Of a stretch of 64,000 bases of DNA, positions 1-30,435 are shown piece by piece. Numbering within the stretch: the stretch's first letter is position 1; each line of letters opens with the position of its first letter. Source of the stretch: an uncultured Myxococcales bacterium (lineage in GTDB: Bacteria > Myxococcota_A > UBA9042 > CAIXZC01); assembly GCA_964593355.1 (NCBI GenBank), contig CAZQHM010000014.1, forward strand, positions 1,269 to 65,268, in the 5' to 3' direction. The position numbers were made by a program, and so were the translations under genes. The notes below the pieces were generated by a model, which saw only the letters and a program-made list of their open reading frames with translations, was not told the origin of the DNA and searched no databases.

Positions 1-1595
1 TGGAGAATTTTGCGCACGATAGCGGCCTCGGAGGGATCTTGGAGAAGGTCGACCAGGGATGGGTCGAACTGTGTGGAGAGGGCCCCCTTGCGGATGAGGG
101 AGCGTGTACGGGCGTAGTTGTAAAGGCAGTACGGGCCTGTCTGTCCGTTGAAATCGATTGAGGCCGAGGGGTTGTACTCGAAGCTCTTCTTGGGGGTGAA
201 CTTGAAGACGAAGAACTTGAGGGCCGCCTGGGCGATGCGTTCGGCTCTCAGGGCCAGCTCTTGCGTGGAGAGGCCCTCGTGGTGAGTGCCGCCGCCCGAG
301 ACTCTGGCCGAGAGCTCCTGGCGTGCCATTTCGTGCAGTTCGTCCATGAGGTCGTCGGCGTCAACGACCTTGCCTTCTCTACTCTTCATTCGTCCTTCGG
401 GGAGGCGGACCATGCCGTAGGAGAGGTGGTTGCAACGGGAGCCAACGCCGGGCCTGAGGCGGTCCATAATCCCGAACAGCACTTGGAAGTGGTAGAGTTG
501 CTCATCTCCAACGACGTAGAGAATCTGGTCCGGCGTCCAGGTATCGTATCGCTGCAGAGCCGTCCCGAGGTCTTGGGTCATATAGACGCTGGTGCCGTCG
601 GGTCTCAGCAGCACCTTCTCACCTTCGAGGCCCAGGCGCTCAAGGGGGAAGACAACGGCGCCATCCTCCCTAGTGCGTAGGATGCCCTTGGCCAGCCCCT
701 CCTGGACCAGGGCCTTGCCGGCCTGGTAGGTCTGGCTTTCGTACTGCATCTGGTCAAAGGTGCAGCCCATTCGTTTGTAGGTTACGTCGAAGCCTTCGTA
801 GACCCAGGAGTTCATGGTTGCCCAGAGGCTTCTGGTGTCGGGGTCGCCGCTCTCCCAGAGCAGCAGCAGTTCTCGGGCCTCGGCGCCAAGTTTCGAGGGC
901 CCGTTGAAGAAGGACTCCTCCTCCATGGCCCCGTTAGCCTCGACCCATGCTTTGTACTCTGCCCTCAGCGCATTCTCAAACCTTACATAAAGGCTGCCTA
1001 CATAGTGATCACCCTTTATATTTAGCGATGTGGGAGTTTGCCCCTCGCCCCACTTCTTGTAGGCAATCATCGTCTTGCATATATGGATTCCGCGGTCATT
1101 AATCAAGTTGACCCGAATCATCTCGTGGCCGAAGTAGCTCAGAATATTGCTTATTCCCAGGCCAAGCAGATTGTTTCTGATGTGTCCAAGGTGCAGTGGC
1201 TTGTTGGTGTTGGGTGAGCTGTATTCGAGCAGGTAGCGGCGGGCCTGTGAGGCCGCACCGCGGGAGGCGAACTGGTCTCCCTCCTGGAGGACGCAGGCAA
1301 GCACTCTCCGGGAGAGTTCGAGCTCGTCCAGGAAGAGGTTAACGTAGCCACCCACGGGCAGCACCTTGCGGACAAGGGACTCTATGGGGATGTGCGATGC
1401 GACCTCGTTAGCAATCAGTTGGGGCGCTTTGCGAAGTGTCTTAGCGAAGGACATCACGGGGAATCCCAGGTGTCCCATCTCGGGGTTAGGGGGCTCGACC
1501 ATCTCTACGGGTTCGTTTATGCCCACTGCTGCCAGAGCTTCGGCGATGACGGTGCGCAGCTCGTTCCATATGTCATGAATTCGTTCCTGGGCCAT
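1..1595 (-). CDS. argS: Arginine--tRNA ligase (class I), truncated at left window edge
   Basis: Absent from the ORF track because it runs off the edge. Manual translation from ATG at 1595 (purine-rich RBS upstream): MAQERIHDIWNELRT...HIGH motif TNKPLHLGHIRNNLLG, NDRGIHICKTM, KVLLRPDGTSVYMTQDLG, GQTGPYCLYNYARTRS. Confidence 0.95.
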   Translation of the reverse strand, partial: MAQERIHDIWNELRTVIAEALAAVGINEPVEMVEPPNPEMGHLGFPVMSFAKTLRKAPQLIANEVASHIPIESLVRKVLPVGGYVNLFLDELELSRRVLACVLQEGDQFASRGAASQARRYLLEYSSPNTNKPLHLGHIRNNLLGLGISNILSYFGHEMIRVNLINDRGIHICKTMIAYKKWGEGQTPTSLNIKGDHYVGSLYVRFENALRAEYKAWVEANGAMEEESFFNGPSKLGAEARELLLLWESGDPDTRSLWATMNSWVYEGFDVTYKRMGCTFDQMQYESQTYQAGKALVQEGLAKGILRTREDGAVVFPLERLGLEGEKVLLRPDGTSVYMTQDLGTALQRYDTWTPDQILYVVGDEQLYHFQVLFGIMDRLRPGVGSRCNHLSYGMVRLPEGRMKSREGKVVDADDLMDELHEMARQELSARVSGGGTHHEGLSTQELALRAERIAQAALKFFVFKFTPKKSFEYNPSASIDFNGQTGPYCLYNYARTRSLIRKGALSTQFDPSLVDLLQDPSEAAIVRKIL

Positions 1596-1746
1596 TTCCT
1601 CTTCCTCCATCCCTGCCTCAGCAAGGCAGCGCAGCATAGCAGGCGGGCTCGTGGGAGACAAGGAACTTGACTTATGTGCAGGAAAGGTTAGAGCATAAAA
1701 GATTGTGCTGCAGGCTCAGGGGGCAGCACTTCAAGGGGAGGGTGCA

Positions 1747-4623
1747 ATGTCGGGCAGGTTTCGGGCCTCAGTCAGGAAGCGTGTGGTGGGCATGCGGGAC
1801 TGGCTCAGCTTCAGCAACTCAGTCCGTGAACTCGTTGACGCGCTGAATCGTGAGATCGAGTCTCCTGACAAGCTGCGACATAGATTGCAGTCCCACCCCT
1901 CCGGATTCATTCGGGCCATCACCTGGCGCCGTCTGACCATGGCCGAGGCCTACCTGAAGCTGGTCGCTTCCAAAGGTGCTGCCAACTATGAAGAGCGACT
2001 GGATGCTCTCACCGTGCTCATGCACCAGGCGTGGCACGCCAAGACCCTCTCCATGCCTATCAATACGGCCCGTTGCCAGATAGCACTTATGAAGGAGTGT
2101 GTGCAGTCGCAAGGAGAGCTTCGGCGTCAGTTGGAGCTCATGTCGGACTTCACCAGGGCATCCTATGGTCAAGAGACCGTTATCAGGCGCCTGCTGCGGG
2201 AGCTTGACCTGATAGAGGTGCCCGAGGAGGGCAAGCCGCTGAAGGATTTGGGCCTGGGTTTCGACGACCATGTTCACGACATGATGTCGCAGGGGACCAA
2301 GACTCCAAGCCAACTCTGCGTCGACGCGTTTATCAAGGGCATGAGCCGATTGACGGTGGCCTACTACGACTTGGAAGACCCTCGAATGTACACCGAGGCG
2401 CTGGAGGCGGGCAGGATCCTCGGCATTCAGGTAGAAATCGGGCTGGAGTTCTCTGTGGGGGAACGAGGCAAGCGGCTGCATTTCATGTATGTTCCCCCTC
2501 AGGACGGTTCTGCCAGCTCCATAAGCTCTTTGGTGGAGCGCAACGCCGACCTCTTCAAACCCTTTGTCGACGGACTGGCACACAATGCTCGTGGGCGCCA
2601 CCAGGCCATATGCGCCCTGCTTGATGTCTTCAATTCGTCGCACCTTCCTGAACTCAACTCACGGTTCAGAAACGCCCAGTTCTTGCGCATCAAGCCTCTG
2701 ACTTGGGCCGATGTGGAAGAGACCATCCATGGTGGACAGGCCTCGCATATTCACCTGGGGCAGCTTCTTGCGGAGCGGTTGAAGCCTATCTTCCATAAGC
2801 GGGTGCTCTATCTCAAAAACCAGTACGAGCACTCCAGAAACCGACTCCTGCGTGGCGAGGTGTCGAGTTGGGAAGTTGAGAGCATCCACAGCGAGTATCT
2901 CAAGGCCCGAGACGACTACGAGCACTGCCGCCCTGAGACCATGACCGAGCGTTACGTCACCCCATCCAGGCGACTTGCGGATTACGACTCGGCCTTTCCC
3001 AGTCTCGATGTCGTAGAGCCCCTTATGACCCAGGTTGGGGGCCGCCTGGTCTTCATTCATCCCCTCTCCCAGGGCCCCAAGAGGGCCGTGAACAAGCTGC
3101 TGCGAGCCCATCACCTCATCACCGACATCGAAACCTTCAATATGTCGGACTCGCTCTTCCGAGACCCTGCGGACCTCAGGCGCCTTAATCACCTGGTTGA
3201 GCTCATGAACAGGGGCGATGAGAAGGAGGTGCGACGCCTTCTGGCTGACTGGGGCCTGCCCGACATCGACGTTGCCCAGGTGGGCCGTGCAGTCTCCCAC
3301 TACCGAGTCAGCAATCTGCGCCCAAGGTGCGGCAGTGACTACATAGGCAGCATCGCATCATTGCCTGGCATGGGGTTCATAGACTCCAGGGCCATTCCAA
3401 AGAGGGCATTGAAGCAACTGGAATCCCACGGCCACGCCTCCATACCGGTTCCAGTGGCGAAACTGCTGCTGCAAGGCGGAGACCCCGACGCCGAGGTGGA
3501 AGCCGAGGGGCAGGTGGTCGCCCTCTCAATCCCCAAGGTGCCCAAGCCGAACCCTGTGGGCGATGAAGTAGGAGGCACCAGCATCGGGCCCATGAGGTTC
3601 TGGCGCTTCCTCAACCCAAGCCTAAAGGGCCTGCTCAAGACCATGATTGCCTACACACCGGCCTTCTTCGTAGTGGGCCCGTGGTACGCCGCATTATGGA
3701 TTGGTATCACCGGCTTCAGGAACCTCCTGGCAGACCTCATCTCGGCATCGGGCTTCATGCTCAAAGCCTGGCGTTGGGACAACGTAGACAAAGAGAACCT
3801 TGCCAACTCCATGTTCTGGACCGGGTTCTCGGTGCCCATTCTGGGCGGGGCAAAGGCCGGATTTGACTACTTGTGGCCACATATCTCCGGTGATGCAACG
3901 GGTTTTGTCTATACGCTCGTTCAATTTTGGGTTATTGCATTTGCAAATGGTCTATATATTACATCGCATAATAGGATAAGGGGATTCGACCGGAGAGTGA
4001 TAAGAGCGAACTTTTTCAGGACCGTACTTTCTTGGCCCCTGGCCACGGCAGGTTCATACTTGCTCAACCTCCTTATGATACCACCCATCGTGCAGTCAAA
4101 GATATGGTCCGACACCGTTGCCGGGATCATCGAAGGCACAGGGAAGTTCATGAGCCGAATGCGTCTGAGGCAGAGGGACTTCCTTGAGCTCTTCACCAAT
4201 CTTCTGTCGGCCGACCGCGACGGAAGCGTGGTGGCGACATCGGACATCATGTATGTCTGGGCCCGACGGGACAGGGGAAGAAGCGCATTGGCCAACCTGC
4301 TAAAAGGCCGGATTCCACCCTCCGTGAACGTTCCTGCCAGCAGCGAATACACGGCTCATGAAGTGGTTGTCGATTCACACCAACTCTTGCTTCGCACTCT
4401 TGGTGCCGAGGGAAGCATGGAGATGCTGACATCCAAGGTGCTCAGGAACTACAGTGGCAGAGAGGCTGTGATTCTGACGCAGTTCATCGGCGACATGCAC
4501 GAACCCTTCGAGGCCTGGCTGGAGCGTCACCCACCATCGGAGCGGCTTGTGAAAACCGTTGAGCAGCAGAGAAGAGAGCGACAGCAAGTCTCGGAAGAAG
4601 GGGCGACCGCTGCAGCTAGTTAG
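1747..4623 (+). CDS. Large hypothetical protein: N-terminal helical region, degenerate PHP-like domain, C-terminal multi-pass membrane region
   Basis: Long ORF (track 1705..4623; ATG at 1747 preferred). PHP-like motifs DHVHD, GLEF, FIHP, IETFN, CGSDY; hydrophobic segments in the C-terminal third. Confidence 0.7.
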   Translation: MSGRFRASVRKRVVGMRDWLSFSNSVRELVDALNREIESPDKLRHRLQSHPSGFIRAITWRRLTMAEAYLKLVASKGAANYEERLDALTVLMHQAWHAKTLSMPINTARCQIALMKECVQSQGELRRQLELMSDFTRASYGQETVIRRLLRELDLIEVPEEGKPLKDLGLGFDDHVHDMMSQGTKTPSQLCVDAFIKGMSRLTVAYYDLEDPRMYTEALEAGRILGIQVEIGLEFSVGERGKRLHFMYVPPQDGSASSISSLVERNADLFKPFVDGLAHNARGRHQAICALLDVFNSSHLPELNSRFRNAQFLRIKPLTWADVEETIHGGQASHIHLGQLLAERLKPIFHKRVLYLKNQYEHSRNRLLRGEVSSWEVESIHSEYLKARDDYEHCRPETMTERYVTPSRRLADYDSAFPSLDVVEPLMTQVGGRLVFIHPLSQGPKRAVNKLLRAHHLITDIETFNMSDSLFRDPADLRRLNHLVELMNRGDEKEVRRLLADWGLPDIDVAQVGRAVSHYRVSNLRPRCGSDYIGSIASLPGMGFIDSRAIPKRALKQLESHGHASIPVPVAKLLLQGGDPDAEVEAEGQVVALSIPKVPKPNPVGDEVGGTSIGPMRFWRFLNPSLKGLLKTMIAYTPAFFVVGPWYAALWIGITGFRNLLADLISASGFMLKAWRWDNVDKENLANSMFWTGFSVPILGGAKAGFDYLWPHISGDATGFVYTLVQFWVIAFANGLYITSHNRIRGFDRRVIRANFFRTVLSWPLATAGSYLLNLLMIPPIVQSKIWSDTVAGIIEGTGKFMSRMRLRQRDFLELFTNLLSADRDGSVVATSDIMYVWARRDRGRSALANLLKGRIPPSVNVPASSEYTAHEVVVDSHQLLLRTLGAEGSMEMLTSKVLRNYSGREAVILTQFIGDMHEPFEAWLERHPPSERLVKTVEQQRRERQQVSEEGATAAAS

Positions 4624-4634
4624 AAGGCCCAACC

Positions 4635-4668
4635 CCGGCCCGTTCGGAAGGCCGGCCCCCTCGTTTTT
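4635..4668. terminator. Possible intrinsic terminator between convergent genes
   Basis: CCGGCC-N9-GGCCGG stem (4635-4655) followed shortly by a T-run, between the stops of the PHP-like gene and the HAD gene. Confidence 0.35.
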
Positions 4669-4684
4669 CCGGCCAACAGCCTAC

Positions 4685-5365
4685 CTATTCATGGTCCAGC
4701 AGCGCCCTGACCGTCTCGGGGCTGACGCCCTCCAGCGTAGTCCAGACCGCCACGGCCATTGAAAAATCGTGGGCCGCCGTGAACTTGTGCGGCACGGCGA
4801 CGCAGCGGATTCCGGCGCTCACAGCCGCCTGGACTCCGGGCCCGGCGTCTTCAAAGGCCACACACCTTCCCACGGGGATCCCAAGCCTTTGTGCCGCAAG
4901 AAGATAGAGGTCCGGGGCTGGCTTCGTGCGCTGCACATCATCGGCCGTGACAACGTGCTCCATATATTCGAAGAGCCCCACCGAGCGCAGCGATGCACGA
5001 ACGTCATCACCCACAGAAGAGGAGGCCACGGCCATGGGCACCCCCTCTGCGGCAAGCCTCTTCACAAGCTGCACCGCACCCGGGCGGGGTTGCAGTCTGC
5101 TCCATATAAGCTCACTATATGCCCTATTCTTTGCTGCCATTAACTCATCTAAAGATTGTAGAATACCGTACTGATCTTTAATGTCCCGGAAATTCTGGAT
5201 GGTAGCGATTCCAACCAGCCCCTCGAAGACCTCATCGGAGAGCCTGATGCCCAGCGGCTCCAGAGCGATGTTGAACGACTCGGCCTGCAAGGGCTCGCTG
5301 TCCACCAGCAGCCCGTCAAGGTCGAAGATGACACCGAATTGATTCGCGGCCATTTTCATGTCCAT
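4685..5365 (-). CDS. HAD-superfamily phosphatase (beta-phosphoglucomutase/CbbY-like)
   Basis: Motif I FDLDGLLVDSE, motif II ASSS, KPAPD, motif IV FEDAGPG. Confidence 0.9.
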   Translation of the reverse strand: MDMKMAANQFGVIFDLDGLLVDSEPLQAESFNIALEPLGIRLSDEVFEGLVGIATIQNFRDIKDQYGILQSLDELMAAKNRAYSELIWSRLQPRPGAVQLVKRLAAEGVPMAVASSSVGDDVRASLRSVGLFEYMEHVVTADDVQRTKPAPDLYLLAAQRLGIPVGRCVAFEDAGPGVQAAVSAGIRCVAVPHKFTAAHDFSMAVAVWTTLEGVSPETVRALLDHE

Positions 5366-5398
5366 CCTGCTATTGGGAACGGTAGTGCGGTGGGGCGA

Positions 5399-6796
5399 CT
5401 ATCTGTGAATCGAGTGGAAGAACTCTTCAACCTCGGGAATGCCCCCCTGGTAGATGAGGTAGCCATCGATGGGCTCTCGCTCCGTAAGCTCACCGCTCAC
5501 GGGGGTCAACATGATGCGCTGGACCTCTTCCCGGTCGTGGCTGTGGCCAAGGGCCCAGCAGAGCTTCATGTAGGCGGTCTCCGGGAGCATGTTGCCAGCC
5601 GGCACAACGCCAAGGTCCATGATCTCACGCCCGGTCTCGTAGACGTACATCTGAACATAGCCCCAGAGCGTCTGCACCGTCATGTACATGTGCACGCCAG
5701 CATCCGTGGCCCGCTGCAGAGCCTGATAGAGCGGTCGATTCACGTGGCCCAGGCCTGTCCCTGCGATTATTATGCCCTTGTATCCCTTATCTACCAGGGC
5801 GTCAAATATGTCAGGATTCATGCCAGGGTAATAGTACTGAATTGTAACACGATCGTCGAACACTGGATCAATTATGACATCCTTGTCCTCTCGCCTGTGT
5901 TTGTAATCCTCTCTGAAGGTGGTGACCCCCTTTGGAGTAACCATGCCCAGCGGGATGTCGCCCACGGTGCGGAAGGTGGATCGGTACGAAGAGTGCATCT
6001 TGCGCACCCGGGTACCACGGTGGATGAGGCAGTACTCGTCCGACGTGGGACCAAACATTGAGACCACCACCTCGGCTATGTCGCTGGTAGCCGCAATGGT
6101 GGCAGCATTAATCAGGTTCAAAGCAGCGTCGGAGCTGGGCCGGTCAGATGAGCGCTGACTGCCAACCATCACGATGGGAATGGGCGAATTCTGGACCATG
6201 AACGAGAGCACCGCTGCGGTGTGGCTCATAGTATCGGTGCCATGGCCCACCACGATGCCACGCTTGCCGTCGGCAACGGCTTGGCCGATTGCAAGCGCCA
6301 GTCCGATGTACTGCTCCTTTGCCATATTTTCAGAAAAGACACCGTAGAGCTTCTTGGTTTCAAGATTACAAACGTCTGCCAGCTCTGGCACGGAGCCGTA
6401 GAGTTCGCCCGGAGAGAATGCCGGAATCACGGCCCCGGTCCGGTAGTCCAGTCGGCTTGCGATGGTTCCGCCCGTGCCCAGCAGTATAACGTTGGGCTTG
6501 TCGGGAGAGTAGGGGAACTCCTTCTCGGGGATCTTGTAGTTGGCTTCCCTGTAGCCGCACGCAGTGATGTTCTCGATGGTGGAGTAGTGCAGGCCGACGT
6601 TGTAGCCGGAGTCCATTTTCAGCACCAGGTGGAAGGCATCGGCGGTCTCGGACCTGGGCAGGATGATGCCCCTGAAAGAGCCCTCGGTGGTCTTCACATC
6701 CACATCGAACCAGACGCCCACGTCGAAGCGCAGCATGACCTCCAGGGTTGGTCCCCGGTAACCCTTACATTTTGCATTTGTGCCAGCCGTGATCAT
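5399..6796 (-). CDS. gatD: Glu-tRNA(Gln) amidotransferase subunit D (archaeal-type)
   Basis: GatD-type N-terminal domain (GYRG...GIILPRSE...HLVLKMDSGYNVG) plus asparaginase-fold catalytic motifs GTGGTIAS, HGTDT, RKMHSS. Start ATG at 6796 overlaps the gatE stop (TAATG). Confidence 0.92.
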   Translation of the reverse strand: MITAGTNAKCKGYRGPTLEVMLRFDVGVWFDVDVKTTEGSFRGIILPRSETADAFHLVLKMDSGYNVGLHYSTIENITACGYREANYKIPEKEFPYSPDKPNVILLGTGGTIASRLDYRTGAVIPAFSPGELYGSVPELADVCNLETKKLYGVFSENMAKEQYIGLALAIGQAVADGKRGIVVGHGTDTMSHTAAVLSFMVQNSPIPIVMVGSQRSSDRPSSDAALNLINAATIAATSDIAEVVVSMFGPTSDEYCLIHRGTRVRKMHSSYRSTFRTVGDIPLGMVTPKGVTTFREDYKHRREDKDVIIDPVFDDRVTIQYYYPGMNPDIFDALVDKGYKGIIIAGTGLGHVNRPLYQALQRATDAGVHMYMTVQTLWGYVQMYVYETGREIMDLGVVPAGNMLPETAYMKLCWALGHSHDREEVQRIMLTPVSGELTEREPIDGYLIYQGGIPEVEEFFHSIHR

Positions 6797-8742
6797 TACT
6801 TCCCTCCATCCTGCATGAACGCCCTGACTATCTCGCCAACGGCAGCGCCTCTGACCCTGCCTCGGTAGGGGGGAGCGACCCTGCCCATGAGAATGGTGTA
6901 CTCTTTGCGGAGGTCTCCGCCTCGACGCCATTCTGGTTCGGGGATGGCCCGAAGCTGGTCGGTGACAACCTGAGCAAGAGGCGGCTGGGCAGGCACCACG
7001 GGGAACAACTCGTCCACCAGGGCAGTGAGGTCTGCGTCGGGCTTCTTGGCCAACGCAGCAATGAGCACCGGGAAGGCCGAAGAGGTGATCCGTGCCTCAG
7101 CCAGAAGCTGGAACAGGCCCAGCATTGTGCCATCGGAGACCCTCTCCACGCCCACGCGCTTCCTCCGGAGGTGGCGCACGGTCTGCCCCATGATTCTGGC
7201 CACCACGCAGCCATCCAGTCCAGGGATGTCCAGAGCCTGGTCAAACACCTTCCGCCTCGGGTCCAGCAGCATGGAGTGGGCAAGATCCAGCGGTACGTTT
7301 CTGGAGCGGTACTTCTCCACGGACTCCCACGGGGGCGTGGGCAACTGGGCCCTTATTCGCTCTACCCGCTCGGGGGCCAGAGCAATGGGTGGCAGGTCGG
7401 TGTCGGGATACATCCTGTTGGGGCCGGGGAGAATGCGCTCGAAGACCGTCGAGCCATCCTTCAGCGCCTTTCTTGTCTCCGAGGGTACACCAAGCAGCGC
7501 CTCTCTGGCCCTGTCGGCAATCTCGTCGGCCGCCAGGCGTACATCCCGCGGCTGTCCCCAGACCAGCACCACGGTGTCCTCTTCAGTGGCCCCTACCTCA
7601 CGATTCACACGCTCCCAGAGGCGGAACGCCAGAGTCACGTTGGGGCAGTCGCTCCAGATTATGTTCGGCATTGCATCGATACAGGCTACCACCTTAACAC
7701 GCCCGGAGAACTCCCGAGCAAAGGTTGCCTCGGGCGCCGTCTCCACGTTGAGCACGTTGCGGAACCCGGGAAGGCGCACGGCCATCACGGGCAAGCCCAA
7801 CTCAACGGCACTACGCACTGGACCAAAGTGGGTTTGCTTCACCACGGAGCTGACTTCGTGGATGGTAGGTTTGAAGGTCTCAGGCGTCACTCCCCTTGAC
7901 AGGAGGCCGTCTCTGATGTCCAGCAGCGCCCTTTGACGCAGCGCTTCATAGTGCGTCAAAGCAACGAAAGTGGGAATCCTGGGGACGCCCTTAATCTCCA
8001 CCCGGGTGCCTCCGGTTACGCTCACGTTCACGTCCTGTCTCGCCGCACCGATGCCCGTGCGCACCTTGCCGGTACACCGGGTCAGCGCCCGAATCACCTG
8101 CCCCACCGCCGCTGCTTCTTCGGGGGTGCGAATCTCCGCCTCGGTTACCGTCTCGATGAGCGGAATGGAGAGCCGGTCGGTGATGTAGGTCCTGTTGTGG
8201 CCCACGTCGGAGACCTCTCTACACGAGTCCTCTTCAAGGCCAAGCTGCCTTATGCCAATCTTTCGCCCCCGGAATGGTATCCATCCGTTGACGCCAAGAA
8301 TCGTGGTGCGCTGAAACCCCGTGGGCATCGAGCCATCCAGGTACTGCTTCCTGGCAATATGAACCTCCTGAACCATGTTGAGGTTCAGCAGCATCGAGAC
8401 CTCAAGGGCTATGTCCAGCGCCTCTGGGTTGAGCCGGAACGGAGGCGTGTCGTCCATCTCATATGTGCAGACCGTATCCCGGTTAATCCGGCACGTGATC
8501 TCCTTCTTCGTCTTGAACTCCATGAGCGCCGTAGGATCGTACTCGCCCAATTCAGAGAGGGTAGGCCGCATGTGCCGCAGGATCTCGGCGTCGTAGGCAT
8601 CGGAGTAGGTGGTGTTGGGGCAGTGGCAGAATAGCTTCTTCTTTGTCCGAAGCTGCTGGTGCACCTCTAGCCCGCACTTGAACCCGAGACTGGCGTAGTC
8701 GCGGGGCGTCATTTGCTCTGGGGTTTTCACAAGTTCCTCCAT
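6796..8742 (-). CDS. gatE: Glu-tRNA(Gln) amidotransferase subunit E (archaeal-type)
   Basis: CGLEVHQQL, RPTLSELGE, RKQYLDGSMPTGFQRT, LEEDSCRE, DRLSIPLIE, GIGAARQDVNVS, RVEIKGV, plus a GAD-like (AspRS-type) insertion that GatB lacks. Start trimmed to MEELVKTPEQ at 8742. Confidence 0.93.
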   Translation of the reverse strand: MEELVKTPEQMTPRDYASLGFKCGLEVHQQLRTKKKLFCHCPNTTYSDAYDAEILRHMRPTLSELGEYDPTALMEFKTKKEITCRINRDTVCTYEMDDTPPFRLNPEALDIALEVSMLLNLNMVQEVHIARKQYLDGSMPTGFQRTTILGVNGWIPFRGRKIGIRQLGLEEDSCREVSDVGHNRTYITDRLSIPLIETVTEAEIRTPEEAAAVGQVIRALTRCTGKVRTGIGAARQDVNVSVTGGTRVEIKGVPRIPTFVALTHYEALRQRALLDIRDGLLSRGVTPETFKPTIHEVSSVVKQTHFGPVRSAVELGLPVMAVRLPGFRNVLNVETAPEATFAREFSGRVKVVACIDAMPNIIWSDCPNVTLAFRLWERVNREVGATEEDTVVLVWGQPRDVRLAADEIADRAREALLGVPSETRKALKDGSTVFERILPGPNRMYPDTDLPPIALAPERVERIRAQLPTPPWESVEKYRSRNVPLDLAHSMLLDPRRKVFDQALDIPGLDGCVVARIMGQTVRHLRRKRVGVERVSDGTMLGLFQLLAEARITSSAFPVLIAALAKKPDADLTALVDELFPVVPAQPPLAQVVTDQLRAIPEPEWRRGGDLRKEYTILMGRVAPPYRGRVRGAAVGEIVRAFMQDGGK

Positions 8743-9089
8743 GCGGATGTAAGGTGGACCCAACCCGGTCCTCAACCCGCAATTCCGGGAGAACCTAGCA
8801 CATGAAGGGGGCCTCCCGTCAAGGAGAGTTAATGGGATTTCGCGCACCGTGGCTCATGCCCCCCTCCGTGACCGCTTCTTATGCTGCCTCTTCAACAATT
8901 AGTAATGGTAAAGTTGTAATGAGAATGGGGCGGCCCTTTGGGCCATCGCCGGCGCCCAACCGAGGCCGATTTAGGCCCTTCCACAGCTGTTAGTCGATTG
9001 CATCGAGGTTACTCAGCGGTTAGAATCCGTCGTCCGCAAAGGGGACCGGTGCCGCACGGGTACGGCATGTAGTTCACCGGAGCAACGCA

Positions 9090-11228
9090 ATGAGAACAAT
9101 GGTCAGGACGGGTGCGCCTTGGAAGATGCGGCCTCTCAACGCCGCTGCTACCATCCCGGAAACCAGCGACACCGGTCAGCTCAACGGTCAGTGGCATGCT
9201 CCCCACAAGTTTGCTGCCTGGCTCGCACGCAGGCTCAGAGACAGAGGACTGGGAATCGATGTCTCCGTTGGCTTCAGGCCCGATGGGGTCCTGGTGCTGC
9301 TCTACAACTTCCGGGGTACCCGGATTCCCCTCTTCCTCACCGTGGGTCGCTTCCACGAGGGCCTGGCCAGTACTTCGTCGGGAAGCCTCATCCTTCCTGC
9401 TTCCGTTGACCCCAAGGTAGCCAAAGTCCTTGTGTCACACACACAGACCATCTTCCACGACCTCTTTGGTGACAAGCCCGCTCAGTGGCTCAGCAAGCTC
9501 CCCATGGACGAACTTGAACTGCTCTGGGGCCCGGAATTCTTGAGCGAGTTCTGTGAGGATCTGCTGGCGCCAGGAGTAACCCACTGGGGAGCCACCATGC
9601 TCCTCGAGGATAGCTTCGACGCAGACACAGTGCACCTCTACTTCGGGGGAGAGTGGAACTTCAGACTCTCCCTGGGCCTCACCCCACCAGCCGACCCTGC
9701 CCTGCTCATGGGCCGCTACGGCATCCTCTACCTCTGCGCCCAAGAGCCCCAGTGGACCAGAAACCCCCTGGCGAACTATGTGGGATATGTCTTCTCGCTT
9801 CGAGTTCCAGGAGATGCCTTCTTCTTTCGAAAAGATCCCTACGAAAAAGATAAACGCCAGTTTAGAGGCTTCACACCATTTGAAGACGATTTCATGATGG
9901 GATATTTTCTGGCCATGGAATTCGAGATAGCAACTATTACATATTCTATGGGAAACGTTGCGATAGTTACCAATGGTGAGCGTGAATGCGCCACATGCTT
10001 CCGAACCATGCTGGGACCCACGGAAGAGTACACCGCCGACCTCTGGCACAGCCCCGCTCGCCGAGGCGGCCTGCGGCAGTACCAGTTCGTGGACTACTCC
10101 AGCGCCGATGTGGCCTCGGGTGACTCCACCCAGGGCGTCACGAGACTGCTTCGTGATGTCATTGCCCAGAAGCCCGACGTGGTCTTCCTGGTTAACCCCT
10201 GCTCCGGGGTCATCATGGGAGATAGCTGCGAGGCCATTCTCCGAGAGTCCTTCGGTCCCGACGGCCCACCGGTGCTGACTCTGGCCATGGACATTCCCCT
10301 GGAGGAGAACGTCGAAGGCCGGGCCTCACTTTGGGAGAAGATCTTCATCTCCAGCAAGGCCCGAAACAGCTCCCCACTGCCCGGCGTCGTCACCCTTGTG
10401 GGGTACGGCACCCAGCACACCCCGGCGGTGCAAGAACTGCCGGAATTACTAACCATTGCAGGCTGTTCGGAGCACCAGTTCCTGGTGCCCTACTTCGACG
10501 CCGACCGAATCAAGTCCTGCGCAGCGGCAGAACTCACCCTGGCATACCCAAGCAAGCTCATCCACGATTCGGCCTATCTCGCCCTTCGTCACTGCATCGG
10601 AGAGGTGGCCCACTTGGCTCCCCCCTGGGGAATCTCAGCCACAGACCGCTGGCTGAGCGCCATCCGCTCAAAGCTCACGACGCCCGATGCTATACCTCCC
10701 CTGGACTTGGATGAACTCCACCGACGCTTCATACCCAAGGAGTGGGATGCCCTCAGAGGTCGTGCAACGAAACACAGGGTGGGCATCCCCATGTCCATGT
10801 CCTTCATGATCAGCCCCGACTCGCACCTGCGCCACGGTGTGAACCTTGTCGAACTCCTCACCGAGATGGGCTTCGGTGTCGACCTCATTCTGCTGCCACC
10901 CAAGGGACGAGCACCCACCCCGGTGCCAACCGCCACCAAGGAACGCTGGGCCGTGGATGAGTCTGGCGCCGACACCGTTCGAGTCATCTTTGGCCAAGAG
11001 GGGCAGTCCGTGGGTGACCTTCTGCTCAGTTCCCCGGCCCGCCTGGTCTACTCGGAAGTTAAGGGCGACGAGCGGCTGCTGGCCGCCGGCAAGCAGAGCT
11101 TCTCCAACGAAGACCTGGCCATGGGATACGCCGGTGCCCTTCGCAACCTCAAACGACTGCTTGGCCTCTGCGAAACACCCTTCAACGGACTCTGGGACAG
11201 AGTCTTCCTGGGGGAGGGACGTCCATGA
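9090..11228 (+). CDS. Nitrogenase component 1-like oxidoreductase subunit with N-terminal extension
   Basis: C-terminal ~430 aa shows component-1 fold motifs (TNGERECATC, VNPCSGVIMGD, PPWGISATDRWLSAI, AMGYAGALRNL). Start codon uncertain. Confidence 0.65.
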   Translation: MRTMVRTGAPWKMRPLNAAATIPETSDTGQLNGQWHAPHKFAAWLARRLRDRGLGIDVSVGFRPDGVLVLLYNFRGTRIPLFLTVGRFHEGLASTSSGSLILPASVDPKVAKVLVSHTQTIFHDLFGDKPAQWLSKLPMDELELLWGPEFLSEFCEDLLAPGVTHWGATMLLEDSFDADTVHLYFGGEWNFRLSLGLTPPADPALLMGRYGILYLCAQEPQWTRNPLANYVGYVFSLRVPGDAFFFRKDPYEKDKRQFRGFTPFEDDFMMGYFLAMEFEIATITYSMGNVAIVTNGERECATCFRTMLGPTEEYTADLWHSPARRGGLRQYQFVDYSSADVASGDSTQGVTRLLRDVIAQKPDVVFLVNPCSGVIMGDSCEAILRESFGPDGPPVLTLAMDIPLEENVEGRASLWEKIFISSKARNSSPLPGVVTLVGYGTQHTPAVQELPELLTIAGCSEHQFLVPYFDADRIKSCAAAELTLAYPSKLIHDSAYLALRHCIGEVAHLAPPWGISATDRWLSAIRSKLTTPDAIPPLDLDELHRRFIPKEWDALRGRATKHRVGIPMSMSFMISPDSHLRHGVNLVELLTEMGFGVDLILLPPKGRAPTPVPTATKERWAVDESGADTVRVIFGQEGQSVGDLLLSSPARLVYSEVKGDERLLAAGKQSFSNEDLAMGYAGALRNLKRLLGLCETPFNGLWDRVFLGEGRP

Positions 11229-12529
11229 GCCACTCCATGCCCACCACCTCCACCTATCTCGACGGCGTCATCCTCGTGGTGAACGTGGTGCCAGACCTCG
11301 CCATCGTCATCGACAGCCCCGGATGCGGCCTCGAAAGAACCGACAAGATTGGCCTGCGCCATGATGTCTACTCCACAGTGACTCTGCCCGGCATGAACGC
11401 ACGACTCATCAACTCCATGGTGCGCTTCCCCGACATTACCCTGGGCACCGAGCCCAAAGTTGTCGCCGCAGCAAAAGAGATAAATACTAATAATAACCCT
11501 TCGGCAATAATGGTGACCGCTAACAGCACTATCGAACTGACCGGCGAGTACCACGAAATGACCTGCCGTCGCCTCTCCGCCGAGTTTGGGAAACCCGTCT
11601 TCTCGTTTCCCTCACGCTCCATCTCCGGTGACTTCCTTGACGGCATCAGCGATGCGCTCAAGGCCGTGGCCGGCCACGTGCCCCTGTCGCCAGCCCCCAT
11701 CCCCGGAAACGTGGCCATAGTCGGTGCCCCTTTCGAGCGCAACGAGATGGATTGCCACGCCAACCTCAACGAACTCAAACGCATGCTCGCAGGCCTGGGA
11801 CTCACCACCTGCGCCACTCTGCCATCGGGCGTCCCCTTCAACGACTACCGTCTCCTCTCCTCCGCAGAACTGGTCATCGGCCTCCCCTACGGACACGAAG
11901 CGGCCGCAGAACTGGCCCAGCGGCTTGCCGTGCCCATGCTGCCTCTGGAACTGCCCGTCGGGATGTCAGGCAGCGCTCACTGGTTGAGGAAGGTGGCTGA
12001 GGCAACGGGCCGGCACGAGGAGGCAGAGAGGTTCATCCAGGCCGAGCTGCAGGATCTGCTGCGCCGGGTGCAGCGCGTGGTTCGAACCATGTTCTTCGGA
12101 AAACGCCTCCTCCTGGCCCTGGACCCCTACCTTGCCAGAGCCCTCGTCCCAGCCCTGGCGGAACTTGGCTTTGAAGTGGTCGACCTCATGTTGCGAACCC
12201 GCGCAGCGTGGCGAGTAACAGAAACCAGCTCCATGTTTGAATCCGCCGGCCTCCGCTTCCCCATCTCCTTCGATACCCGTCTGCCCGAGCTCAACCAGAC
12301 CTGGAGCTCGGCCATTGCGTCGGGAGTGGACCTCATCATCGCCACAACCCTGGAGCGGGCAGCATTGGAGGATGGCAGTGTGGCCTACCTGGAGATGGGT
12401 TTTCCATCATACCTGCGCCATGCCCTATTCGACGCACCTTGGCTGGGATTCAGAGGGATGTTGTGGTTGTGTGACAGAATGTATAATACGATGTCTGAAA
12501 ACAAGTATATTGTGAATGCGAAAACCTAG
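11225..12529 (+). CDS. Nitrogenase component 1-like oxidoreductase subunit (NifE/N/K, BchB, CfbD superfamily)
   Basis: DSPGC, ITLGTE, VAIVG...ERNEMD...NELKRMLAGLGL, PVGMSGSAHWLRKVA, MGFPSY, PWLGFRG. ATGA overlap with the upstream gene. Confidence 0.8.
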   Translation: MSHSMPTTSTYLDGVILVVNVVPDLAIVIDSPGCGLERTDKIGLRHDVYSTVTLPGMNARLINSMVRFPDITLGTEPKVVAAAKEINTNNNPSAIMVTANSTIELTGEYHEMTCRRLSAEFGKPVFSFPSRSISGDFLDGISDALKAVAGHVPLSPAPIPGNVAIVGAPFERNEMDCHANLNELKRMLAGLGLTTCATLPSGVPFNDYRLLSSAELVIGLPYGHEAAAELAQRLAVPMLPLELPVGMSGSAHWLRKVAEATGRHEEAERFIQAELQDLLRRVQRVVRTMFFGKRLLLALDPYLARALVPALAELGFEVVDLMLRTRAAWRVTETSSMFESAGLRFPISFDTRLPELNQTWSSAIASGVDLIIATTLERAALEDGSVAYLEMGFPSYLRHALFDAPWLGFRGMLWLCDRMYNTMSENKYIVNAKT

Positions 12530-12561: not shown

Positions 12562-14046
12562 TTAGAGATCCATCCTCAAATTTACCCCGCCTTGCAGAAG
12601 AGGGTAGGGAAGGGAGCTGTCGGGGACGAAGGGGATCTCCTCCATGCCGAACCGGAACTCGCCACCCTTGGTTCCCCAGTTCCCCGAGAGGTATGCTTCC
12701 AGCTTGACCCAGGTCAAAATGTCCGTGCGCATGTCGAACCGAGTGAGCCCCGAGCCATCACTCAAATTGCCGATGTTACTCAGGGTAAACGAAGTGTTAT
12801 TCCAGTTGCCAGGCATTGGTAATAATATGTATAGTGCAGCATAGTGACGTCCAAGATAGAAGGGGGAGGCCGAGCCCGTGGCGATGGCCTCCAGGTAGCC
12901 GCTCTTATGTTCAAGGCCATTGCGATTATAAAAATACTCTGCCCCAAACACGATGTACTCGGACGCATCATATTTCAGAGTGTATGACGCTCCGAGAGTG
13001 GCTTGTACCAGCGCATCCCAGCCGTTAGTCTTGAAGAGTTCTCTCCTCAGTGAGCCTTCGTCTTGCAAGAAGGTCAGTGCTGCCTCGGCGGTGAGGTCCA
13101 GGTCCCATACCCCCGCCGAGAGGTCCAGGCCAAGCTGATACTCCCTGTGGCGGTCGGCGCTTGTGCCGGCCAGAAGCTGGGGCAGGGTCAGGGGGTCGCT
13201 TCGCTCGGTTAGCACCCCGCTGAGTCCCACTTCCGCCGTGCCCAAAGGCTTCTCCAGCCGCAGCGCTGCCCCAAGCTCGTCCCAGCGGCCATCGCCCTGA
13301 AGCATCAGCAGCCCGATAGCGTTGAGTCCCAGGGGCTCAATGGGCAGGTGGGCCTTGACCATGGGCACTCCCGTTCGCTCGTCGAAGAAGGCCAGTGGGT
13401 CTTTCTTTGATGCGTTGATACCGTCCACGGGGTTCCAGAGCCTGCTGGTGCCCCAGCGAACGGGCTGTTTACCCACGGTGAGGAACATCCAGCGGCCGAC
13501 ATCGAAGTGGACGAAGAGTTGGTCCAGCAGCGCCCGGGTCTCTTCGGCCTCAGGGGTAACACCGGGCACCATGGTGGAGGAGAGTGGCGTGTAGACCAGC
13601 CGGCCACGGGCATAGGCCCTGGTTCGGTCGTTGGGGCGTGCATCAAGGAAGAGGTCCAGCAGGTTGGGCGAGGCCACCACGGGCCCTCGCTCCTCTTGTG
13701 CCTGACTGGCCGATAGGCGGAGGTAGACCATTCCGCCTATCTGCAGCTTCTCTGTGGTCAACTCCGAGAGCAGCCTGCCCGTCAGGTCTGCGCTCTCTTG
13801 CCCCGACCCCTCACCAAGCAGCAGGTCATCAAGAGACTTATCACCTTCGGGCTGAGAGGGCTGAGCGGGCTGCGTGGGTGGAGAATCATCCGTGGTGTCA
13901 TCACCGAAGAACTCCTCGTCCCGTGGGTCATCAAGAAGCCCCGCTTCACTGCCCCGAGCGCCATCCACACCGACCAGATTAGTCAGCAGCAGGAGCCCAA
14001 GGAGCCACCCTATCTGCGGCCTTGGCACTTCATTGGGTTGGGTCAT
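12562..14046 (-). CDS. Putative outer-membrane beta-barrel protein
   Basis: Signal peptide-like N-terminus, acidic linker, alternating amphipathic strands, GKQPVRWG motif. Start at 14046 overlaps the upstream stop (ATGA). Confidence 0.7.
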   Translation of the reverse strand: MTQPNEVPRPQIGWLLGLLLLTNLVGVDGARGSEAGLLDDPRDEEFFGDDTTDDSPPTQPAQPSQPEGDKSLDDLLLGEGSGQESADLTGRLLSELTTEKLQIGGMVYLRLSASQAQEERGPVVASPNLLDLFLDARPNDRTRAYARGRLVYTPLSSTMVPGVTPEAEETRALLDQLFVHFDVGRWMFLTVGKQPVRWGTSRLWNPVDGINASKKDPLAFFDERTGVPMVKAHLPIEPLGLNAIGLLMLQGDGRWDELGAALRLEKPLGTAEVGLSGVLTERSDPLTLPQLLAGTSADRHREYQLGLDLSAGVWDLDLTAEAALTFLQDEGSLRRELFKTNGWDALVQATLGASYTLKYDASEYIVFGAEYFYNRNGLEHKSGYLEAIATGSASPFYLGRHYAALYILLPMPGNWNNTSFTLSNIGNLSDGSGLTRFDMRTDILTWVKLEAYLSGNWGTKGGEFRFGMEEIPFVPDSSLPYPLLQGGVNLRMDL

Positions 14047-14828
14047 CGACTCTGCCCCTCCAGCCATGCCTTGGTGAATATGTTGGCCGGAAGCGGCCGC
14101 AGGTCCACGGACTGAATGACAATGGTCGTGGTGTTGCCCTTCTCCACCTCGTCGAAGATGCGGACCTCTGAAGGGTACCATACGTCGGCCTTCTTGGATT
14201 CGGAGTAGACCTTCTTCCACTTGGGAGTGTAGGTCGTTCGCATGAGTTTCCCCGAGAGGGCGAACTCCTGCCTCTTTAGAATGTTTGCCGTATCGCCATC
14301 CACCCAGAGCTCCTGCACCGGATAGGCCACGTCCACTTCGGCTTTGGCAGTGAGCTTGATTCGGTGCGCCTTGAACTTGCCAAGCTTCTCTTGGCCCACG
14401 TACTCGGCGGTGAACTCCTCGGCCAGCCTCGACTCGTCGAAGTCGGCACGCCTGGAGTCGGTGCCCGCTATTCGCTCCCGCTCCGTACGCCGCTCCCAGC
14501 GCCCCACCGACGGGTCGTAGAGCCAGAGGTTTCTGTCGATGCGCAAATAGCCCTTTCCACGCTCTGCCTTGGGGTTGAGGAAGAGCAGCATGAACTTGTC
14601 GTCTTTGTCCCGGCGATATACTACCGCCTCAAGAACCACGTCGTCACGCCCCTTCTCTTTGTTCTGCACCAGCACAAGGTTCTTGAAGTCCCCCGAGTTT
14701 CGCTGGCGCTCGTCAATGGTCTCCAACAATTTCTTCACCCCGGCATCGTCCAGGGCTTGCGCTCTAACAACACCCGGTATCATCAACAGCGCTACAAAGG
14801 CAGCTATGAACAACTGGTTTCTCAACAT
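14043..14828 (-). CDS. Outer-membrane lipoprotein-sorting (LolA-like) protein
   Basis: Signal peptide; KGYLRIDRNLWLYDP, IAGTDSRRADF, DLRPLPANIFTKAWL typical of the LolA-like family. Confidence 0.85.
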   Translation of the reverse strand: MLRNQLFIAAFVALLMIPGVVRAQALDDAGVKKLLETIDERQRNSGDFKNLVLVQNKEKGRDDVVLEAVVYRRDKDDKFMLLFLNPKAERGKGYLRIDRNLWLYDPSVGRWERRTERERIAGTDSRRADFDESRLAEEFTAEYVGQEKLGKFKAHRIKLTAKAEVDVAYPVQELWVDGDTANILKRQEFALSGKLMRTTYTPKWKKVYSESKKADVWYPSEVRIFDEVEKGNTTTIVIQSVDLRPLPANIFTKAWLEGQSR

Positions 14829-14900
14829 GTAACCTCCTGTCAGGCCGCCTGACTATCCCGCCACTTGGATGTTGCTCATGCCAAGTGGGCAAAGTCCGAC

Positions 14901-16202
14901 TCAACCCACCTGGTGTATCGCAGTCACGGGCTTGAGCCTCGTCGCCCGCCACGCCGGGAACAACGACGCCAGCATGGCAAACCCCGGAACGATTAACATA
15001 GCATTCAGCACCACCCTGGGGTCCATGACCAACCTGAGCGTGTCCGTCATCAGGAAGAGCTGGAAACCAGGCGAGACCGGAATCTCCAGAGCGTTTATCA
15101 GGGCCGCCAGAGCTGTGCCTAGCCCCACCCCCAGGAGTGTGGCCGATACCGACAACACACCAACCTCAATCACAAAGGCTATCAGAACCCGCCCCTTGCC
15201 CATGCCGATGGAGCGCAAGGTGCCGATCTCTTTGGTCCTGTCTCTAATGGCTATCCAGAGCGTGTTCATAACGCCCACCAGGATTATCACCAGCAACACC
15301 ATCACAAGCATGCCCGAGACCGTGGAGAAGGTCTTCAGCACCCACTGCATGGCCAGCAGCTCATCCACCCAAGTGGTCAAGTCCAATCGCTGACCGGTCC
15401 AGTCTTCCCCCGCCGCCAACTGAAACTTGCCCCAGAAAGGCCCCGGGTGATGCTCCATCAACTCATGCCCGTAGTCAGGCAGCATGGTCCTCAGACGCGA
15501 CTCAACCTCTGCGGACTTTTCCGGATCATCCAGGTACACGTATATAACACCTGTTGTGTCTTCAGTATAGAGGTTCAGTTCACGCATGGTGTCCGCCGAA
15601 GCAAGGCACGACATGGTGGACAAGATCCCCAGATCTTTAAGGATTACCCGCACCGTGACATCCACAGAGTTGAACTGCCCCCGCACCGTAGGGGCCGAAA
15701 GCGTCACAGCGTCGCCCACGGATACCCCCAGGCGCTTGGCTTGCGCAGCGTAGAGCGCCATGCTGCGAGGCTGCGCCAGGTCCATCAGGTTCCCCTCAGC
15801 CTCCCGCAGAACCTCCCGCAGACCGGGCTCAGACTCGATGGCTACCCCAACCACCGCCGCCTGAATGGAGTCACGCTCGGAGACTATCTTGGCCATTCCA
15901 CGGAGGCGGTCAGAGAACCTCACCGCCTCAGGCACAAGCTCCTCTATCTGCCCAAGAACCTTCTCACGCTCAAGCAGCAGAGGGGCAACACGACCGCTGG
16001 AAACTTTGTAGAAGCCCGTGACGTTCACGTGCCCGGATAGCAGCGCCGTCCCCGCACGCATCATCGTCGACTCTATCCCAGCACCAACCGCTCCAAGCAG
16101 AACCAGCAGAATCGTCACAAGCGCCATGGCCCCGCCCAGCAGCAACGAACGCCGACGGTGCTGGATAAGATTCCTGACCGCTATCAGCATCAGTCTTCCC
16201 AT
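14901..16202 (-). CDS. ABC transporter permease, FtsX/LolE/MacB family
   Basis: N-terminal TM, periplasmic domain, RTKEIGTLRSIG motif, C-terminal TMs ending PAWRATRLKPVTAI. Start trimmed to 16202. Confidence 0.9.
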   Translation of the reverse strand: MGRLMLIAVRNLIQHRRRSLLLGGAMALVTILLVLLGAVGAGIESTMMRAGTALLSGHVNVTGFYKVSSGRVAPLLLEREKVLGQIEELVPEAVRFSDRLRGMAKIVSERDSIQAAVVGVAIESEPGLREVLREAEGNLMDLAQPRSMALYAAQAKRLGVSVGDAVTLSAPTVRGQFNSVDVTVRVILKDLGILSTMSCLASADTMRELNLYTEDTTGVIYVYLDDPEKSAEVESRLRTMLPDYGHELMEHHPGPFWGKFQLAAGEDWTGQRLDLTTWVDELLAMQWVLKTFSTVSGMLVMVLLVIILVGVMNTLWIAIRDRTKEIGTLRSIGMGKGRVLIAFVIEVGVLSVSATLLGVGLGTALAALINALEIPVSPGFQLFLMTDTLRLVMDPRVVLNAMLIVPGFAMLASLFPAWRATRLKPVTAIHQVG

Positions 16203-16203
16203 C

Positions 16204-19028: not shown

Positions 19029-19222
19029 GGTCAACCTCTTCAGCGATAAACTGCAACCTTGTGGCGACAGAGTTATTAAGCGTCTATATATAATCGGACA
19101 ATCCCGCCCAGCGCGGCGGTGGCCCATGGGGCCCCCTCCAATCAAGCACAGAAGATAAAGCCTGATGCAACTGGTTTCAAGCAGCGATGAGGCCCGCAGG
19201 TCGCCTATGGCCGGCGCCCCCT

Positions 19223-22319: not shown

Positions 22320-22702
22320 GCAATCCTCCCAAAACCGTCGCGAAATCCCCATACGGCCACGGCGCCAGCACTATTCCGGCACGCCGCCAACCCGATGCAC
22401 AGCATCCGCTGGAGTAGACTAATCTTGTCAACTACTGTCAAGGGCAAAGTCGGCACAATACCGTGGTCTCCATCCAGGAAATGTCGTGGCCCGGTCCTTC
22501 CTGTCTTGACCCTCAAGCGCAGGTCAAGTGGTTCGCTGCTCAATTGCCCCTAAACCACTGCTCACTATTCTCGCCCCTACCCCTCGACTCGGCACGAGCC
22601 TCGCTCGGGGTAAACGGCTGGGGGGCGGATCGAGATATCTGAGCAGCCGTGTAGCATCATCCACCTCTTCAGCCGGTATCGCCGGGTTGAAGCCTTCTTC
22701 AG

Positions 22703-30355: not shown

Positions 30356-30435
30356 TTCTCTGTCGGTTTTTTAGAACCCCTCCAGAACAGGTGCGTAGAG
30401 CGCCGCCCGCTTCTGTACCCAAATGGAGGAAAACC

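Follow-up and report, generated by a model that had tools for sequence, protein, structure and literature searches.

Does the two-subunit amidotransferase GatDE occur in bacteria? Reviews from 2008 to 2022 describe it as restricted to Archaea and as an 'archaeal signature protein' (PMC2330236, PMC8762117, PMC9499178); in the same reviews, co-evolution of GatDE with an A1-U72 tRNA(Gln) explains why archaea never acquired GlnRS. The question is raised by a 64,000-nucleotide (nt) stretch of DNA from an uncultured Myxococcales bacterium (contig CAZQHM010000014.1), referred to as the window, in which one gatE gene is immediately followed by one gatD gene on the same strand. Judged from the sequence, the window would encode a working GatDE that makes Gln-tRNA(Gln) from Glu-tRNA(Gln) in a bacterium, and we give this reading a probability of about 0.72.

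A gatE-gatD pair with intact catalytic residues

The block under study contains three genes, which are all co-oriented in the open reading frame (ORF) list and in the sequence:

6796..8742, minus strand: gatE, kinase/transamidase subunit of Glu-tRNA(Gln) amidotransferase; 648 residues from the ATG at 8742, above the cut-off of NF003107
5399..6796, minus strand: gatD, asparaginase-type glutaminase subunit; 465 residues, above the cut-off of NF003217
6794..6807, minus strand: translational-coupling junction of gatE and gatD; GGAGGG at 6807-6802 and the TAA/ATG overlap, read directly
4685..5365, minus strand: HAD-superfamily hydrolase, beta-phosphoglucomutase-like subfamily; 108.7 bits to Pfam HAD_2

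GatE of the window scores 515.8 bits against NF003107 (cut-off 456) and 442.7 bits against TIGR00134 (cut-off 319.55); GatD scores 498 bits against NF003217 (cut-off 310) and 496 bits against TIGR02153 (cut-off 324). The Pfam architecture of GatD is composed of GatD_N (PF18195, 44.9 bits), Asparaginase (PF00710, 179.8 bits) and Asparaginase_C (PF17763, 115.8 bits). Both proteins could be aligned over their full length with the solved archaeal enzymes, GatE with 1zq1_C (E 9.5e-107) and 2d6f_C (E 1.4e-87), and GatD with 1zq1_A (E 5.4e-121) and 2d6f_A (E 6e-111).

Two other identities were considered and rejected. The cradle domain of GatE matches GatB models at 1e-43; the best GatB model reaches 149.2 bits on the protein, against a cut-off of 338. 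GatD passes the subfamily model TIGR00519 (366 bits), which its place in the superfamily would predict, and a stand-alone type I L-asparaginase is ruled out by the GatD_N domain, the higher scores of the GatD equivalogs and the coupled gatE. The initial annotation had separated the pair from GatB and from ordinary asparaginases, and this separation held, with GatE under the GatB cut-offs and GatD grouping with archaeal GatD. These comparisons support the assignment of the window genes as true GatD and GatE orthologues, rather than as GatB or an ordinary asparaginase.

The catalytic residues were compared in alignments of 63 bacterial GatE and 57 bacterial GatD sequences, each with two solved archaeal sequences added. 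In Methanothermobacter thermautotrophicus GatE, mutation of His15, Glu157 or Glu184 abolishes both kinase and transamidase activity (PMC2330236). The corresponding residues of the window GatE are H28, E170 and E197, and none of the 65 aligned sequences departs from them. Like those of GatE, the catalytic residues of GatD are strictly conserved: the GTGGT (T108/T111), HGTD (T187 and D188) and RKMH (K266) motifs are invariant in all 59 sequences. Together with the PF18195 match, this bears out the early description of GatD as having its N-terminal domain and intact Thr/Thr-Asp/Lys motifs. The genes are under purifying selection; compared to the relatives, dN/dS (the ratio of nonsynonymous to synonymous divergence) is about 0.09-0.15, at saturated dS.

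The layout of the pair was confirmed from the ORFs and the sequence, including the TAATG at 6794-6798 that had been noted at first reading. The gatE stop codon TAA (6798-6796) overlaps the gatD ATG (6796-6794), and GGAGGG (6807-6802) is located 5 nt before this ATG. Close gatE-gatD junctions are also present in relatives, for example in loci L033, L035 and L054. For gatE, an independent gene call on a Logan assembly gives an alternative start, TTG at 8763, which has GAGGA 5 nt upstream and yields a protein of 655 residues; both the ATG and the TTG starts are compatible with the alignments. A promoter and terminator scan gave nothing above chance level.

The gap between the gatD stop codon and the start of the HAD gene is 33 bp, as initially annotated, and the HAD gene is probably co-transcribed with gatED in the window. 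The phosphatase described after gatD is thus present; it is not part of a conserved module, since none of 80 related loci has a homologue beside gatED. Neighbourhood clustering of these loci found no conserved partner besides gatD and gatE, and the HAD gene was therefore rejected as a part of the system. Its naming as beta-phosphoglucomutase was also rejected, because TIGR01990 gives 106.2 bits against a cut-off of 189.4. TIGR02009 reaches 126 bits (cut-off 153), and the generic HAD-IA model is the sole NCBIfam model that the protein passes.

Bacterial host, relatives and origin

The flanks of the block had been read as bacterial, and the genes found there agree with this reading; they encode a LolA-like protein, FtsX/MacB permeases with an ABC ATPase, a PAS-HD-GYP protein, a Ser/Thr kinase and ArgS. 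The view that gatE and gatD are assimilated genes with the codon style of their neighbours was borne out as well. GC content is flat through the region, GC3 (GC content at third codon positions) is 0.736 for gatD and 0.757 for gatE, both within the neighbour range, and the codon-usage distance of the two genes to other genes also falls within that range. The Logan assembly of SRR8476232 (L081, 13,053 nt) is 100% identical to positions 1-11845 of the window. It spans both junctions of the block, so the mis-joining of an archaeal contig, a possibility raised in the initial annotation, is effectively excluded. In an exact-protein look-up, GatD was matched and GatE with the ATG start was without a match.

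The host is probably a Myxococcota-related bacterium. This is indicated by the unannotated protein p552 (12562-14220), because the source names of its homologues include Myxococcota, Deltaproteobacteria, Anaeromyxobacter and Archangium, and because a p552 homologue directly adjoins gatE in the closest relative, L001.

Relatives were collected by scanning one genome per species of GTDB r232 (185,579 species) with the window GatE. The scan gave at least 600 pattern matches and at least 581 confirmed relatives, and the best 80 of these at least 581 relatives, with identities of 48-80%, are all in bacteria-labelled genomes. Their labels include Aminicenantes/Acidobacteriota, Ignavibacteria, Bacteroidota, Kapabacteria, Latescibacterota, Krumholzibacteriota, KSB1, Caldithrix/Calditrichia, Neomarinimicrobiota, Fermentibacteria, Aegiribacteria, Bradymonadales and 'Myxococcales', and several relatives are located on bacterial contigs or chromosomes of 1-4 Mb (CP070631.1, OY761611.1 and OY820579.1). 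The peptide NRMYPDTD, in which the solved archaeal enzymes have E, not D, was probably the main driver of the scan, and this makes it likely that most of the at least 581 relatives belong to the bacterial type. A protein search with short queries added Gemmatimonadota, Bipolaricaulota, Zixibacteria and Thermoanaerobaculia; it returned mainly fragments and was used only for names and taxon labels. NCBI names some of the proteins from bacterial metagenome-assembled genomes 'Glu-tRNA(Gln) amidotransferase GatDE subunit D'. The survey of such genomes that had been suggested at first reading thus shows that the window is not an isolated case. Nearly all loci long enough to hold both genes have gatD after gatE in the same orientation; neighbourhood clustering of the 80 related loci revealed no other conserved neighbour.

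The window proteins are closer to their bacterial homologues than to the two solved archaeal enzymes. The identities are 47-54% versus 33-36% for GatE, and 61-72% versus 43-47% for GatD; the partial GatE of L001, which lies outside the identity alignment, is 80% identical to the window. In a neighbour-joining (NJ) tree of GatE, the bacterial sequences fall into groups that broadly follow their phylum labels. The window GatE groups with L001, L002, L003, L024 and L013, which are labelled Bradymonadales, 'Myxococcales' and proteobacterium, and this grouping matches the host signal given by p552.

When 1.84 billion cluster representatives were searched exhaustively for GatD, 457 of them matched at E<=1e-30. 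The full-length ones were combined with 57 labelled bacterial sequences, the window included, in an NJ tree, and bootstrap values were obtained from 200 replicates with 20 of the 57 labelled bacterial sequences; the tree is unrooted and NJ is a crude method. The labelled bacterial GatD sequences form one clade with 98.5% bootstrap, and no unlabelled representative falls inside it. Together with the divergent P0068, P0069, P0070 and P0105, they form a clade with 97.5% bootstrap, which joins P0071, P0073, P0075 and P0103 at 81%. The 233-kb contig of P0068 has genes of bacterial type, which encode a NarL-type two-component system, a heptosyltransferase and an outer-membrane channel, and the contexts of P0105 and P0070 contain no archaeal markers. 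P0073 comes from the Asgard phylum Candidatus Sigynarchaeota. One member of the P0103 cluster sits between fibrillarin/Nop5 and L37ae, with gatE and gatD overlapping. All other labelable GatD representatives are archaeal: Thermococcus, Nitrososphaerota, Desulfurococcaceae, Thermoplasmata and Diapherotrites by name, and P0074 by context. GatD of Pyrococcus abyssi and of M. thermautotrophicus fall among the archaeal representatives.

The GatD/GatE phylogeny proposed in the initial annotation therefore places bacterial GatD as one clade among archaeal sequences, not inside ordinary asparaginases. Bacterial GatDE forms an old clade, which probably goes back to one acquisition from an archaeon, with mostly vertical inheritance inside phyla afterwards; the simplest reading of the tree is that GatDE passed from an archaeon to a bacterium a single time, long ago, and has resided in bacteria ever since. 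Vertical descent of GatDE from a common ancestor, with massive loss, may be the alternative.

In the GatD tree, P0073 and P0103/P0225 (L086) are the archaeal sequences closest to the bacterial clade, at the 81% node. Like the window, L086 has gatE followed by gatD with overlapping stop and start codons. Different from the window, it lies in an archaeal context (fibrillarin, Nop5 and L37ae) and keeps the GAD and YqeY domains and the GXXAXGX motif; its GatE shares 33.5% identity with the window GatE. GatD of L086 (8001-9821, 606 residues) carries a C-terminal fusion to an archease domain, archease being a cofactor of the RtcB tRNA ligase.

Some divergent relatives have an unusual architecture. 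P0069, on a 12.8-kb Logan contig, encodes 943 residues in which the N-terminal ~490 residues of GatE (cradle and insertion) are fused to a full GatD; it is without the helical and tail domains. Its sister P0068 (L082) has a separate GatE of 622 residues, the tail of which is unaligned, and this bacterial sub-branch may lack the D-loop-binding tail. L083 and L085 are divergent loci, probably bacterial. In L083, two other genes lie between gatE and gatD, GatD has no detectable GatD_N, and GatE has RGD for the conserved RQD; L083 and L085 may represent a functionally different sub-branch.

Recognition of tRNA and the probable substrate

The substrate of the window enzyme, and its role relative to GatCAB or GlnRS, we infer as follows. 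By analogy with the archaeal enzyme, a non-discriminating GluRS would charge tRNA(Gln) with Glu. GatE would hold the acceptor end and the D-loop of this tRNA and phosphorylate the gamma-carboxyl group with ATP at the Mg site to which H28, E170 and E197 belong. GatD would hydrolyse Gln or Asn by means of a Thr nucleophile and a Thr-Asp-Lys triad. The ammonia would reach GatE via an intersubunit tunnel, where the activated intermediate would be amidated. The translational coupling of gatE and gatD would favour equal amounts of the two subunits. The catalytic core would be unchanged, and the tRNA-recognition elements would be re-adapted to bacterial tRNA(Gln).

A functional amidotransferase is suggested by the two intact active sites, the full-length tail, the strong purifying selection and the tight two-gene unit. 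The linkage of gatED with glnA and asnA lends independent support to an amidotransferase, since the products of the linked enzymes are the two amide donors of GatD; archaeal GatD uses both Gln and Asn (PMC2330236). In nine loci (L017, L021, L032, L038, L040, L042, L049, L063 and L080), all of a Latescibacteria/Krumholzibacteriota-type group, the gene directly upstream of gatE is glnA (glutamine synthetase), with Gln-synt_N and Gln-synt_C matched at E 3e-108. It occupies ~8.4-10.0 kb where gatE starts at 10001, 1650-3149 in L017, 3581-4957 in L040 and 169-1392 in L042. In two loci, gatD is directly followed by asnA (aspartate-ammonia ligase), which occupies 9524-10657 in L083 and 2699-3829 in L085. 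An MFS transporter gene is often found just before glnA in the glnA-gatE loci.

The known system that is closest to the window pair is archaeal GatDE, for which the structures of the M. thermautotrophicus enzyme with tRNA(Gln) (PDB 2D6F) and of the P. abyssi enzyme (PDB 1ZQ1) are available. Both have the same two subunits as the window, alignable over the full length, and what appears to be the same domain order (GatD_N and asparaginase N/C in GatD; cradle, insertion, helical and YqeY-like tail domains in GatE). They also share the catalytic residues and the equivalog hidden Markov models that the window proteins pass. The window differs from them in its bacterial host, in the absence of the tail motif GXXAXGX and in its cradle loop, GKVRTGIGAARQDVNVSV compared to KVKRGLGTIRQDLNVSI. 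The presumed substrate pair would also be different, U1-A72 in bacterial tRNA(Gln) and A1-U72 in the archaeal one.

Compared to bacterial GatCAB, the overall chemistry and pathway are the same, and GatB is a paralogue of GatE. GatCAB is the Glu-tRNA(Gln) amidotransferase expected in a bacterium without GlnRS. GatCAB uses the amidase GatA together with GatC, whereas the window has the asparaginase-type GatD and no GatC. Different from GatB, the window GatE has an insertion domain of ~165 residues and is without the Lys-rich tail motif. GatCAB also makes Asn-tRNA(Asn), which archaeal GatDE does not (PMC2330236).

The GatB_N match of the window GatE (residues 22-460, 276 model positions) is interrupted by a stretch of ~165 residues that aligns with the archaeal insertion domain, and the alignment to 1zq1_C is continuous over residues 9-629, insertion and tail included. 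Pfam GAD gives no match to this insertion even at E<=10, whereas it matches the divergent bacterial relative L082 (23.6 bits) and the archaeal L086 (33 bits). The 'GAD-like insertion' named in the initial annotation is thus present and aligns with the archaeal one, but it is too divergent for the Pfam GAD model. After the RMYPDTD motif, 185-195 residues corresponding to the helical and tail domains follow in 63 of 63 bacterial GatE.

The cradle loop, which we take to be the counterpart of the 3-10 turn of GatB next to the 1-72 pair, is KVKRGLGTIRQDLN in archaea and GKVRTGIGAARQDVN in bacteria. The two loops are equal in length, the substitutions are systematic, and conservation within the bacterial clade reaches 90% or more at most of the positions. 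The tail motif GXXAXGX has been implicated in tRNA discrimination (PMC2811023); it is GMGAMGL in P. abyssi, GMGAMGP in M. thermautotrophicus and GMGATGA in the archaeal L086. The LMGxVM..RGR segment downstream of the motif position is retained in bacterial GatE. The tRNA-recognition elements have thus changed, in a way that agrees with adaptation to bacterial tRNA(Gln) and is also compatible with a changed substrate.

Several observations weigh against the synthesis of Gln-tRNA(Gln) by the window pair. GXXAXGX is absent at the aligned position from the window and from 63 of 63 GatE of the bacterial clade (one unrelated match to the pattern occurs elsewhere in a bacterial GatE tail), and the Pfam YqeY match of the window tail, 22.4 bits, is below the cut-off of 27; the recognition of the substrate has therefore changed somehow. 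Neither the window nor any of the 87 loci carries a tRNA(Gln) gene, and the window contains no tRNA or Rfam family. One tRNA gene, ~165 bp upstream of gatE in L006 (9759-9835), a locus from a bacterial metagenome-assembled genome, was followed as a U1-A72 lead and rejected as an ordinary tRNA-Glu(CUC); the ARAGORN register gives U1-A72, and in the canonical register, with U8 in place and the T-stem directly adjoining the acceptor stem, the pair is G1-C72.

The rival that survives best, although we consider it rather unlikely, is a repurposed GatDE that kept its chemistry and acts on another substrate, such as Asp-tRNA(Asn), another acyl-tRNA or a non-tRNA carboxylate, with GatCAB or GlnRS serving translation. 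The lost tail motif and the clade-specific substitutions in the cradle loop, which aligns with the first-base-pair element of GatB, are consistent with it, as are the failure of Pfam GAD, the sub-threshold YqeY match and the derived look of the divergent relatives (the tail-less P0069 fusion and RGD for RQD in L083). However, all 63 main-clade GatE have kept a full-length helical and tail region, the acceptor-end and catalytic motifs are invariant, and very high conservation across a wide phylogenetic range fits a housekeeping role in translation. Divergence at the tRNA contacts is, moreover, the expected outcome of adapting to bacterial tRNA(Gln). The comparison favours a tRNA-dependent amidotransferase with altered recognition elements over repurposing.

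A division of labour, in which GatDE would serve Gln-tRNA(Gln) only and a co-resident GatCAB would make Asn-tRNA(Asn) or act as back-up, is improbable as a separate account; it is a sub-case of Gln-tRNA(Gln) synthesis by GatDE, not its opposite. In archaea GatDE is specific for Gln, and only those without AsnRS also have GatCAB (PMC2330236); the content of the window is compatible with a GatCAB encoded elsewhere in the genome. However, no gatA, gatB or gatC, and no gatB or asparaginase paralogue, was found in the window or in the related loci.

An artefact, either an archaeal fragment that was mis-joined or mis-binned or a very recent passenger transfer, is highly improbable: nothing beyond the archaeal reputation of the family was found in its favour, whereas GC content, GC3 and codon use are like those of the neighbours, the Logan assembly is identical over both junctions, the closest relatives (the best 80 of at least 581, 48-80% identical) have bacterial labels and in several cases Mb-scale contigs, the window proteins share only 33-36% (GatE) and 43-47% (GatD) identity with the two solved archaeal enzymes, and the window groups with Bradymonadales- and Myxococcales-labelled sequences, in agreement with the p552 signal.

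Neighbouring genes and significance of the clade

Besides the genes described above, the window contains genes for LipB, NrdD, NrdG, a 2-oxoacid:ferredoxin oxidoreductase, an acyl-CoA dehydrogenase, a Ser/Thr kinase, large beta-helix proteins, GH31 and GH5 glycosidases and the PAS-HD-GYP protein. The following features were located in more defined positions:

1..1637, minus strand: argS, truncated by the window start; TIGR00456, 370.8 bits
1705-4623, plus strand: large ORF of 972 residues, no family match
9090-12529, plus strand: two overlapping genes (712 and 434 residues) of the nitrogenase component-1 / DPOR-like oxidoreductase family, divergent from gatE
12562-14220, 20073-22352 and 33844-35784, minus strand: large ORFs of 552, 759 and 646 residues, no family match
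14043-19298, minus strand: LolA-like protein, two FtsX/MacB-type permeases and ABC ATPase, one cluster
29651-30355, plus strand: nrdG
30202-33228, plus strand: longest ORF of a VIT-VWA protein
40091-41335, plus strand: one-gene low-GC island
41421-54113: three NosD-like right-handed beta-helix proteins (608, 1338 and 1275 residues) around a Ser/Thr kinase of 867 residues

argS is a second translation gene, located 3 kb from gatD; it is complete (624 residues) in L081, which reaches 1.2 kb past the window start. The cluster at 14043-19298 may be a lipoprotein-sorting or efflux system. For the nitrogenase/DPOR-like pair, all NCBIfam equivalogs are far under their cut-offs and no NifH-like partner is located nearby; the 712-residue protein has an N-terminal extension of ~280 residues without any match. 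L001 is without this pair, the p552 homologue abutting gatE there. The 552-residue family itself is common in Myxococcota-labelled genomes, and one homologue has a Pfam Porin_O_P match. A comparison of the unannotated neighbours with PHROGs and NCBIfam gave no match. The low-GC island has a GC content of 0.46, a GC3 of 0.45 and a local minimum of 0.38, compared to ~0.59 elsewhere; its product of 414 residues matches nothing in Pfam, NCBIfam or PHROGs, and the island is probably a recent foreign insertion. The longest VIT-VWA ORF overlaps the 3' end of nrdG by ~150 bp, and its real start probably lies further downstream.

The enzyme as such is ordinary, and the window adds one more member to a clade; the value lies in the clade. 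A full-text search of the freely accessible literature returned no paper on bacterial GatDE and none that mentions the run SRR8476232, and the bacterial GatDE clade is apparently undescribed, though its sequences are public and automatically annotated. The bacterial flanks of the window and the bacterial labels of the best 80 of at least 581 relatives do not fit an archaea-only GatDE, and the large conserved bacterial clade contradicts the stated distribution.

A wider scenario can be proposed tentatively, as a possibility to which we would not yet commit ourselves. One ancient archaeal transfer, possibly Asgard-related, would have seeded GatDE in multiple bacterial phyla, namely the FCB group, Acidobacteriota/Aminicenantes, Myxococcota/Bradymonadales, Gemmatimonadota and Bipolaricaulota; GatE would have been re-tuned through the loss of GXXAXGX and changes in the cradle loop; and GatDE would have replaced GatCAB for Gln-tRNA(Gln) in some of these bacteria. 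The bacterial clade would represent a natural experiment, in which the same family would work on bacterial tRNA(Gln) with visibly changed recognition elements. The re-tuning of first-base-pair and D-loop recognition, and the displacement of GatCAB by GatDE, become testable. So do the scenarios of Sheppard and Söll, in which GatDE was present in the last common ancestor or moved between the domains. If the reading is true, GatDE is not an archaeal signature, and the co-evolutionary lock between GatDE and archaeal tRNA(Gln) would need revision.

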